DNA of 64,000 nucleotides from Escherichia coli (GCF_003334765.1 NZ_QOWT01000012.1); one strand, 5' to 3'; numbered from the stretch's first letter, positions 57,058 to 58,062 are shown. The notes: generated from the sequence alone by a model not told the origin. Numbers and translations are program-made.

Positions 57058-58062
57058 AGCATTATCTCCGCGTCGCCTCTGGACGGCTCCCTTGTTGATA
57101 GCAATAAAGTAAACCGGACTGGGCCATGAAGCTACTGCTAATCAGACAGTCATCCGTAAGCAAAAGCTGCGATATGCGGTTCAAACGCGCTGTAAGGCTC
57201 TCTGGCGAGTGTTTTAAAGAAGGTAGTCGAAATCATGGTGCAGAATTCGCGGCGCTCTCATAGAGTGACTGGCGAAGCCAGTTGAAACAAGCGTAGCGGA
57301 GTTCGAGCAATCAATGAGAAATCTGGGCGAGCTTTAAGCTTTACCGCGCTTCTTAACTTTTGAGTCTGTTTGGCTCTATAAGGATAAGCCTGCCGCCGTG
57401 GAAATTTTCGGACGCTATGCCTGAGAGGGGCGCTTCCAAACCTAGGGCATCCACTTTTTCGCTCCCAACTTATCTGGCTGCATTTACACCGCGAACACGT
57501 TGAACGTTAGCAGCTTCTGGTTCGTATTTGGTTGTTACGCAGGAGAGGTAAAAACGGCAGGTTTACTTTTGACGGCAACGCCATAAGACACCAAACAGCA
57601 GAGAAGTGTAATTGTTAAAAATGTTAAAACATAACTTGTTCTTTAAGATGTAAACCCTTCCTCGGGGGGGAAGCCGGACATATCAACCATAAGGCCATCT
57701 GAGAAGATAGCCTGTAGGTTGCTCGGTTCCCCTTGCCAGATGAAGATCAAGTCTTCCTCGTGGTGTGACGACCTTTCTTGAAAGATGCATTATGCGCAAA
57801 AGAAGCTACTCAAGAATCCGCCGATAGCTACTTTCACCCTCTGCTTGGCTGCATCAAACGCTTGCGCGCCCTACCTACCACAATCAACGTTACGCAGAGT
57901 TCCCATCCTGACGTCTTCCGCTAAACAGCGGTGATCTCCACCTACCCGGACCGGTTTACCGCATGAGGTAGGTGTCAGGAGAGAAGCTAGCACACCATCA
58001 TTTTAAAGAAAAGTCATATATATCATATGGCTGCGTTCATATTCTGAACGCAGTTATCGATG

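Follow-up and report, generated by a model that had tools for sequence, protein, structure and literature searches.

What occupies the kilobase between positions 57058 and 58062 of this 64,000-nt stretch of Escherichia coli DNA (GCF_003334765.1 NZ_QOWT01000012.1; hereafter the window), in which neither strand has an open reading frame (ORF) of at least 60 codons? The interval, which we refer to as the gap, lies between a gene for a NIPSNAP family protein (56725-57057, minus strand), described as barrel-like in the initial annotation, and a DUF1643 gene (58063-58530, minus strand) that is a frameshifted pseudogene in this strain. It belongs to a 7.3-kb islet that adjoins the tRNA-Leu(CAA) gene leuX (54507-54591) and is bounded by a 28-bp exact direct repeat of the leuX 3' end (54567-54594 and 61881-61908). 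We found that the gap is the non-coding backbone of this small integrative islet, which is probably mobilisable. About 450 nt of it, here called module C (57607-58063), carry conserved hairpins and sit exactly in the slot that sister islands fill with a gene for a predicted rolling-circle protein, so C is probably either a cis-acting origin or an unannotated RNA.

The lack of ORFs of this length is confirmed by the ORF list, and a six-frame coverage scan identified the 1,005 nt as the longest stretch in the window without an ORF of at least 60 amino acids (aa), followed by stretches of 790 nt and 703 nt. Because 134 of 1,000 shuffles of the same nucleotides (13%) are equally free of ORFs, what stands out is the size of the non-coding interval and not the lack of ORFs as such. 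Translated similarity across the interval, which the initial annotation had named as the sign of a multiply frameshifted ordinary gene, was sought with a six-frame query of the whole gap, and nothing was found at E ≤ 0.01 among 5.8 billion proteins. The suggestion that the gap might be a decayed gene holds for positions 57293-57339, which are the last 15 codons of a 69-aa gene described below, and fails elsewhere, where no frame has translated similarity. Remnants of the slot genes of sister islands were considered and rejected: tblastn with hyp338 (the Rep-like gene described below), hyp306, and hyp171 gave no match in the gap, and neither did a profile hidden Markov model of the Rep-like gene or the neighbouring proteins from Pseudomonas, Burkholderia, and Ewingella. 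The ORF previously reported with 58 codons at 57785-57961 was miscounted; this plus-strand frame (MHYAQKKLL..., from 57785) is 49 codons long and closes at 57934. It shows six non-synonymous and two synonymous changes among aligned variants and has no protein match, and we judge it spurious, these changes being those of an ORF without selection at the protein level. A 40-codon ORF on the minus strand (57871-57993) is frameshifted in two relatives (L008 and L038). None of the 586 complete E. coli genomes that hold at least 80% of the gap has an annotated feature inside it.

The gap was compared with tRNA-Gly islands (SM107 and CD09), with plasmids, with sequences from three other species, and with 27 metagenome contigs. 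Module C occurs only in the islet type of E. coli Nissle 1917 and O157:H7 and in a few relatives. Diversity was counted over five full-length variants and has a trough centred on C and on the hairpin at its right end, pal. Only 3 of 373 sites segregate in 57690-58062, whereas DUF1643 in the same variants has 13 segregating sites among its 126 third-codon positions and 8 among its 252 first and second positions; 16 of 155 sites segregate in the adjacent 57535-57689. The NIPSNAP genes of the five variants differ by up to 9%, and across lineages with this divergence the length of the interval is kept at 1,003-1,005 nt, so that the conservation among islet homologues on which the initial annotation had wanted information is borne out for both the length of the gap and the sequence of C. 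The most divergent copy of C is that of MEI7BO1-21 (L051), in a tRNA-Gly island without DUF1643. There the C core (57607-57917), a non-coding block that hardly varies and opens with an AT-rich stretch (57607-57655), is still ~99% identical, and both flanks have ~65-80% identity, read by eye from the alignment; the variable left flank, C1 (57535-57606), accounts for the lower part of this range (~65-70%). The MEI7BO1-21 island (L051:4600-5486) retains C, pal, and the segment left of C1 (B-right, see below), and has a DUF6602 gene in the place of DUF1643. Downstream of its pal are two copies of a GT(A/T)TAATTGATT motif with TATAAT, which may be an operator/promoter pair.

Pairing in three hairpins of C is maintained by compensatory changes. 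Hairpin H1 (57914-57934; UC..CCGCU-AAAC-AGCGG..GA; z = -2.95 as DNA) has one compensatory C-G to U-A change, along with loop changes, in MEI7BO1-21. Hairpin H2 (57939-57974) is the CACCTAC...GTAGGTG hairpin of the initial annotation, which we recovered together with an inner CGG/CCG stem; it has two compensatory C-G to U-A changes in MEI7BO1-21 and a U-G intermediate in L020. The outer stem of pal has three compensatory changes in MEI7BO1-21. Pairing in H1, H2, and the extended pal stem is thus kept through six double changes, where 0.9 are expected; none of 500 shuffles reaches six, and no double changes are seen with slid partners. The C block as a whole folds moderately better than shuffles, with z about -2.5 on both strands, and the minimum free energy and centroid structures agree. 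Substitutions of the G-U wobble type were tried as a guide to the strand and proved uninformative, being ~4 to 4 by our own count. Judged by what is expected of a single-strand origin (sso) or single-strand initiation site (ssi), namely a strand-specific conserved structure, C has three covarying hairpins, but neither the folding score nor the wobbles single out one strand.

The hairpin pal (58020-58063) forms the right end of C. The perfect 9-bp inverted repeat that had been reported at 58031-58053 is present as described, in the form CTGCGTTCA-TATTC-TGAACGCAG with a 5-nt loop, is extended by an imperfect stem, and folds as single-stranded DNA with z = -5.4. Its stem and loop are almost invariant in all islands with C or the Rep-like gene, even where DUF1643 identity is down to 82%. 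By position it is also a terminator-like hairpin 3' of DUF1643; the terminator scan did not call it on either strand of the window and called the homologous hairpin on the plus strand of L002. As MEI7BO1-21 has kept pal without DUF1643, pal is not merely the terminator of that gene. In sister islands, ~124 nt separate pal from the Rep-like gene downstream of it, and the promoter of that gene (TTGATA-N16-TAAAAT, 10 of 12 consensus matches, called strong) follows immediately after pal. What is looked for in an origin or an origin of transfer (oriT), a hairpin-forming repeat next to an initiator gene with conserved stem and loop, is therefore found in pal, the gene being present in the relatives, and we regard pal as a candidate nick hairpin.

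In the sister islands, the interval from B-right to pal holds a minus-strand gene for a 338-aa protein, hyp338 (L002, L005, L011, L014, L030, L035, and L036), whose carriers include SM107, an E. fergusonii plasmid, Citrobacter, and several metagenome contigs. The protein, of which WP_021557172.1 is an example, is unrecognised by Pfam, NCBIfam, PHROGs, and PADLOC, and a sequence-profile search of the PDB with it gave no link to Rep_trans. The AlphaFold model, built from 35 homologues (predicted local distance difference test score of 85), has a predicted fold that in fold comparisons matches the Rep_trans rolling-circle initiators. Its invariant Y201-x-K203 and RVEV presumably resemble the active-site region of RepC ('IYNK ... 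RVEIELK'), which we take as a lead. Homologues of hyp338 in Pseudomonas, Burkholderia, and Ewingella are found in the same type of module, with a divergent resolvase, a helix-turn-helix (HTH) protein of the Xre type, and a large DUF6538-type integrase. This shared context and the predicted fold suggest that one of the core genes of the islet family encodes a rolling-circle initiator or a MOBT-like relaxase, and that the Nissle/O157 type has C instead. No rep gene is present in the window, and no initiator or relaxase of the Rep_trans type was found to be encoded by this islet; the relaxase-like protein was seen only in the sister islands, and the oriT here is a candidate, pal.

Two of the distant modules contain very long perfect palindromes, with 17-bp arms in Ewingella (L054:5979-6016) and 16-bp arms in Pseudomonas (L052:4094-4130). 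One of them follows the Rep-like gene at a distance of ~100 nt; the other is in the divergent region between resolvase and operon. Both may be origin or operator sites. In Burkholderia vietnamiensis (L053:5907-6979), ~1.07 kb without a called gene directly follows the Rep-like gene and is a possible analogue of the gap.

The Rep_trans-fold gene in the slot of the relatives, which lay outside the view of the initial annotation, points to a function of the origin type. We tentatively rank first, at well short of an even chance, the reading that C and pal form a Rep-less origin module that acts in cis. Under this reading, pal would be the nick hairpin, serving as a double-strand origin (dso) or as oriT, and C would be an accessory structured cis element, for example an sso-like region at which the displaced strand would be converted to duplex. 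The Nissle/O157 islet would be a Rep-less derivative whose initiator would be supplied, and which would be mobilised, in trans. The diversity trough on C and pal would then reflect constraint or preferential exchange around an origin. That no consensus promoter or terminator was found inside C supports this reading.

Several observations weigh against such an origin. The islands with the Rep-like gene do not carry C, so C is no obligatory cis partner of that initiator. The Rep_trans relation of hyp338 is one of fold only, with Pfam and the PDB profile search negative, and pal is a candidate nick site. All six compensatory changes come from MEI7BO1-21 alone and may therefore represent few independent events. 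In UBA5654 (L008), the C core and DUF1643 have diverged to about the same extent (97.5% vs 96.6%), and the near-identity of the C core could stem from recent recombination instead of constraint; the islands are visibly recombinant, so part of the identity of C may be owed to recent exchange. Lastly, an RNA gene would account just as well for the layout of an invariant body, 3' hairpins that covary, and a strong hairpin at the end.

In our estimation, C is nearly as likely to be a gene for a non-coding RNA of ~350-420 nt, so far unannotated, as it is to be an origin. On the plus strand, such an RNA would have its promoter in the AT-rich stretch (57607-57655), followed by the constrained body, H1 and H2 at the 3' end, and pal as the terminator; on the minus strand, it would begin close to 57992, under the promoter that sister islands use for the Rep-like gene. 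A structured non-coding RNA was among the proposals of the initial annotation, and its structural part stands: the hairpins are real, three of them covary, and the block folds better than its shuffles whichever strand is taken. MEI7BO1-21 has kept the AT-rich block, the body, and pal while the flanks have diverged, the pal homologue in L002 scores as a plus-strand terminator, and, in the manner of a cargo gene, C alternates with a protein-coding gene under a promoter of its own. For the minus strand, the homologue of the hyp338 promoter keeps its TAAAAT box (58004-57999) in the Nissle type, but this -10 box is not conserved in MEI7BO1-21, and the wobble-type substitutions are evenly divided between the strands. 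The transcriptional part of the proposal fared less well. The scans of the gap called neither a promoter that agrees with the consensus at 9 or more of 12 positions nor a canonical terminator, and inside C no terminator was called on either strand. A covariance-model scan for known RNA families gave no Rfam match in the gap at gathering thresholds, and at E up to 10 it gave only chance matches of 15-16 bits (snoRNA, DnaX element, and UCA1). By flanking gene names, SpLE5 (the name of this islet in O157:H7 Sakai), and coordinate prefixes, the interval was not found in the Hfq cross-linking (CRAC) study of O157 Sakai and its supplements, and, in the literature searched, no title or abstract of a paper that mentions SpLE5 is about this interval. 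The known O157 island small RNA (sRNA) Esr41 was rejected as a candidate, being located in SpLE1.

A bolder reading takes C (57607-58063) as an undescribed element, either a ~400-nt structured RNA or an sso/dso cassette, that replaces a Rep_trans-type initiator gene, with the Nissle/O157 copies depending on or regulating their Rep-bearing relatives. We regard this as possible, with doubt outweighing belief.

By sequence comparison, the gap is a mosaic, and its left 480 nt are scaffold and debris. The leftmost part (57058-57181, minus strand) is the upstream region of NIPSNAP, with a ribosome-binding site and a presumed promoter, a function assigned from its position only. Other islands, and also plasmid pCP53-92k (L004), have it still joined to NIPSNAP, and in L004 the homology extends to 57153; L031 and L039 carry 57058-57279. 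Overlapping its end is module A (57160-57289), a second, partly decayed copy of an integrase-terminator module whose first copy lies at 56620-56700. The segments 56628-56697 and 57160-57278 align to one and the same segment of L011 with 71-79% identity, and the terminator scan called the integrase terminator hairpin at 56622-56651. In SM107, the homologous A is found directly after the integrase stop codon, with a clean hairpin and the T-run kept.

Next to module A lies the remnant of orf69 (57293-57339, plus strand), consisting of the last 15 codons and the stop of a 69-aa gene (phrog_27283). A deletion of ~230 nt in Nissle removed the promoter and the first ~55 codons, and homology of the window to L003 begins at codon 56. 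Intact orf69 (MATYRQIADDVKSRTG...AEIEQSMRNLGEL*) is present in L002, L003, L008, L011, L027, L028, and L034, where it ends ~39 nt before the B core, the junction element described below. Its match to phrog_27283 has E = 8e-19, and the 53 homologues reach as far as Sphingomonadales. The family has no Pfam match, is usually encoded just 3' of a large integrase (e.g., L003:4836-5045, plus strand), and is also found in a Yersinia integrative and conjugative element (ICE) and in defence-rich regions of Sphingomonadales. From its HTH-like N-terminus, our guess is that the 69-aa protein might be an excisionase or a regulator.

Decay of this kind raises the alternative that the whole gap is decaying or neutral DNA and that the identity of C results from recent spread and recombination between islets. 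The orf69 stump, the decayed duplicate terminator, and the frameshifted DUF1643 gene are in keeping with it, as are two locus-tag numbers dropped from annotation, RS16535 and, in Sakai, where ECs_5246 and ECs_5248 flank the gap, ECs_5247. The islands are also strongly mosaic, and the C core of L008 is no better conserved than DUF1643. We nevertheless consider neutral decay unlikely for the gap as a whole: its length is kept despite NIPSNAP differences of 9%, segregating sites are far sparser in C (3/373) than at neighbouring positions of the synonymous type (13/126), compensatory changes maintain three hairpins, C is kept in an island that has lost DUF1643, and no remaining trace of coding potential was found.

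The B core (57377-57446) measures 70 nt and has the form TATAAGGA-N~25-GGACGCWATGCCTG-N8-10-CTTCCAAACCTAGG, with TATAAGGA, GGACGCWATGCCTG, and CTTCCAAA as invariant blocks. We found 19 distinct variants, from E. coli, Citrobacter, Kosakonia, Klebsiella plasmids, and metagenomes. Homology to unrelated contexts stops at both of its edges, and from these breaks the B core is, as we read the alignments, a junction element where cargo cassettes are exchanged. A minus-strand gene starts 55-97 nt to its left in three cargo types, so the B core may also serve leftward cargo as a promoter or operator, although it has no convincing conserved sigma-70 boxes. As a structured RNA, B was rejected, since shuffled sequences fold better than it does, whichever strand is taken (z = +1.8), and a tie to orf69 was rejected as well, the distant orf69 homologues in Yersinia and Sphingomonadales having no B-like sequence downstream. 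Two ColE1-like plasmids of Klebsiella (L006:553-2123 and L007; 6.0-6.7 kb, with Rop/RNAI, typed as non-mobilisable) have the B core because they carry a 1.57-kb island fragment with 98-99% identity. This fragment starts within module A, ends at the right edge of the B core, and holds a DUF4468 gene and a 190-aa gene. To the right of the B core follows a conserved extension, B-right (57447-57534), with 77-86% identity to L002, L005, L011, L014, and L051. Islands with the Rep-like gene share it, as the sequence that follows downstream of that gene.

A pal-like sequence, pal2 (CTGGTTTCAAAATCCGAACGCAG, 61623-61645), differs from pal by three mismatches, and none is expected by chance. It lies between the HTH gene and the right attachment site (attR), and pal and pal2 bracket the module from DUF1643 through recombinase and cargo to HTH. 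Because pal2 does not fold as a hairpin, its likeness to pal is at the level of half-sites. The idea of a recombinase target, also raised in the initial annotation, would make pal and/or the junction elements sites at which the 186-aa serine recombinase or the 650-aa tyrosine integrase of the islet exchanges, inverts, or resolves cassettes; homology between islands does break at or within ~50 nt of pal and at both B core edges, pal2 provides a bracketing partner, and pal read as 8-7-8 has, in our own reading, the core geometry of tyrosine recombinase sites. This is the least probable of the readings and we think it can largely be set aside, for the islet has no hix/gix/cix-like site (26 bp, AAACC-NN-GGTTT-like core) with at most one mismatch, two hix/gix-like matches elsewhere in the window being at chance level, the 9-5-9 pal has an odd centre, which does not suit serine recombinases with their 2-bp stagger, 3 of the 7 spacer positions differ between pal and pal2, and A and the B core, tried as terminal inverted repeats of a cassette, show no significant inverted-repeat similarity against shuffles (p = 0.34 for Nissle, p = 0.8 for the Klebsiella plasmid).

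The islet that contains the gap begins with the tyrosine integrase gene (650 aa, 54640-56592, plus strand), followed by the NIPSNAP gene. To the right of the gap, the DUF1643 pseudogene is followed by the divergent gene of the serine recombinase (186 aa, plus strand, resolvase/invertase type) and then by genes for a 281-aa protein, a membrane protein, and an HTH regulator. The integrase and the 28-bp leuX repeat provide what is expected of an integrative and mobilisable element (IME), an integrase and attachment (att) repeats at a tRNA gene. This region of the window is 100% identical to E. coli Nissle 1917, ATCC 25922, and other strains, and in O157:H7 Sakai the same islet is annotated as 'phage-like element SpLE5'. 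A phage origin was rejected: there was no match in 50,697 phage records, and the B core was found in one viral contig only. The block 57690-58062 is present in 595 of 5,426 complete E. coli genomes (~11%), in 587 of them with at least 99% identity and in six E. coli genomes with 90-95%; carriers of the islet include Nissle 1917, the reference strain ATCC 25922, and O157:H7.

In Nissle 1917, the DUF1643 gene has its frameshift near the 5' end; annotation gives it as intact in O157:H7, DG341-1, and Res13, and UBA5654 has an uninterrupted DUF1643 ORF of 155 aa. The first ~160 residues of the 281-aa protein (59296-60141, plus strand) match the candidate defence family PDC-S60 (PADLOC, E = 6e-27), and the slot of its gene is variable, sister islands having AIPR, an HNH endonuclease, or other defence-like genes there. 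Another long ORF-free stretch (61402-62104, 703 nt) is found at the right end of the islet. At 61765-61792, 116 nt before attR, there is a degenerate third copy of the tRNA 3'-end repeat (68% identity), which may be a relic att site of an earlier tandem insertion. The IncY plasmid pCP53-92k (L004, 1427-4030) carries a tRNA 3' fragment, the integrase, and NIPSNAP with 98% identity to window positions 54549-57153; the islet, or a part of it, has thus moved onto a plasmid. Beyond attR (from window 62439-63263 on), there is more accessory DNA, which in the Nissle record comprises an AbiJ-NTD4 protein and IS30 and IS3 (insertion sequence) remnants and is followed by the fec operon. As this accessory DNA comes straight after attR, leuX carries a tandem array of islands, matching the order of SpLE5 and then SpLE6 in Sakai.

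The kinds of element that we invoke (IME, rolling-circle origin, and island sRNA) are all known already. The islet anatomy, the predicted Rep_trans fold of the slot protein, and the conserved C are undescribed as far as the literature searched shows, and the biology of the islet is essentially undescribed; the islet is present in about one in nine complete E. coli genomes. If the structural prediction is right, the islet family has a Rep_trans-fold initiator or relaxase in Proteobacteria, along with a common variant in which a conserved, structured non-coding module stands in place of that gene. The swap of the Rep-like gene for C would give a concrete model of how minimal cargo-carrying islets move or replicate, and it singles out a specific 450-nt sequence as a candidate origin or RNA. 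For engineered Nissle strains, it matters whether the islet can be mobilised in trans.

Four known systems invite comparison. The origins of rolling-circle Rep_trans plasmids (pT181 family), made up of a dso whose nick hairpin is next to rep and of a separate structured sso, are similar in that a conserved perfect hairpin lies directly upstream of a Rep_trans-fold gene, as it does in the sister islands, and in that a structured non-coding block, here C, adjoins the hairpin and is exchanged as a cassette between otherwise diverged elements; in rolling-circle plasmids, single-strand origins are exchanged cassette-like. They differ in that the window has no rep gene, that the islet is integrated in a Gram-negative chromosome, and that the Rep-carrying islands are without C. 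A review covers the wider background of these plasmids (PMC5714925).

Like C, the island sRNAs of pathogenic E. coli (EcOnc RNAs and Esr41) are non-coding, belong to the accessory islands of O157:H7, and were missed by standard pipelines. Esr41, however, is in SpLE1, and C is several times longer than typical sRNAs that bind Hfq. DUF1643 has been reported in staphylococcal SCCmec and SCC-like (staphylococcal cassette chromosome) elements, which carry ccr serine-recombinase genes. The islet resembles the ccr complex in having its DUF1643 gene divergent to a serine recombinase, whereas the ccr products are large serine recombinases and that of the islet is of the 186-aa resolvase/invertase type.

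The MOBT-type ICEs and IMEs (ICESt3, Tn916, and streptococcal IMEs) are elements of Firmicutes whose relaxases match Pfam PF02486. Here, by comparison, the match is one of fold only, the Nissle-type islet is without the protein, and conjugative mobilisation of the islet is hypothetical. Two reports describe IMEs with a Rep_trans-domain relaxase (PMC7563843 and PMC5704250). Common to them and to the islet family are an integrative way of life, a relaxase with a Rep_trans domain (predicted in the sister islands), and an oriT, or a candidate for it, just upstream of the relaxase gene. In ICESt3, the oriT of the Rep_trans-type relaxase is located in an intergenic region of ~200 bp just upstream of the relaxase gene (PMC6499999), and the position of pal just upstream of the Rep-like gene matches that of the ICESt3 oriT.

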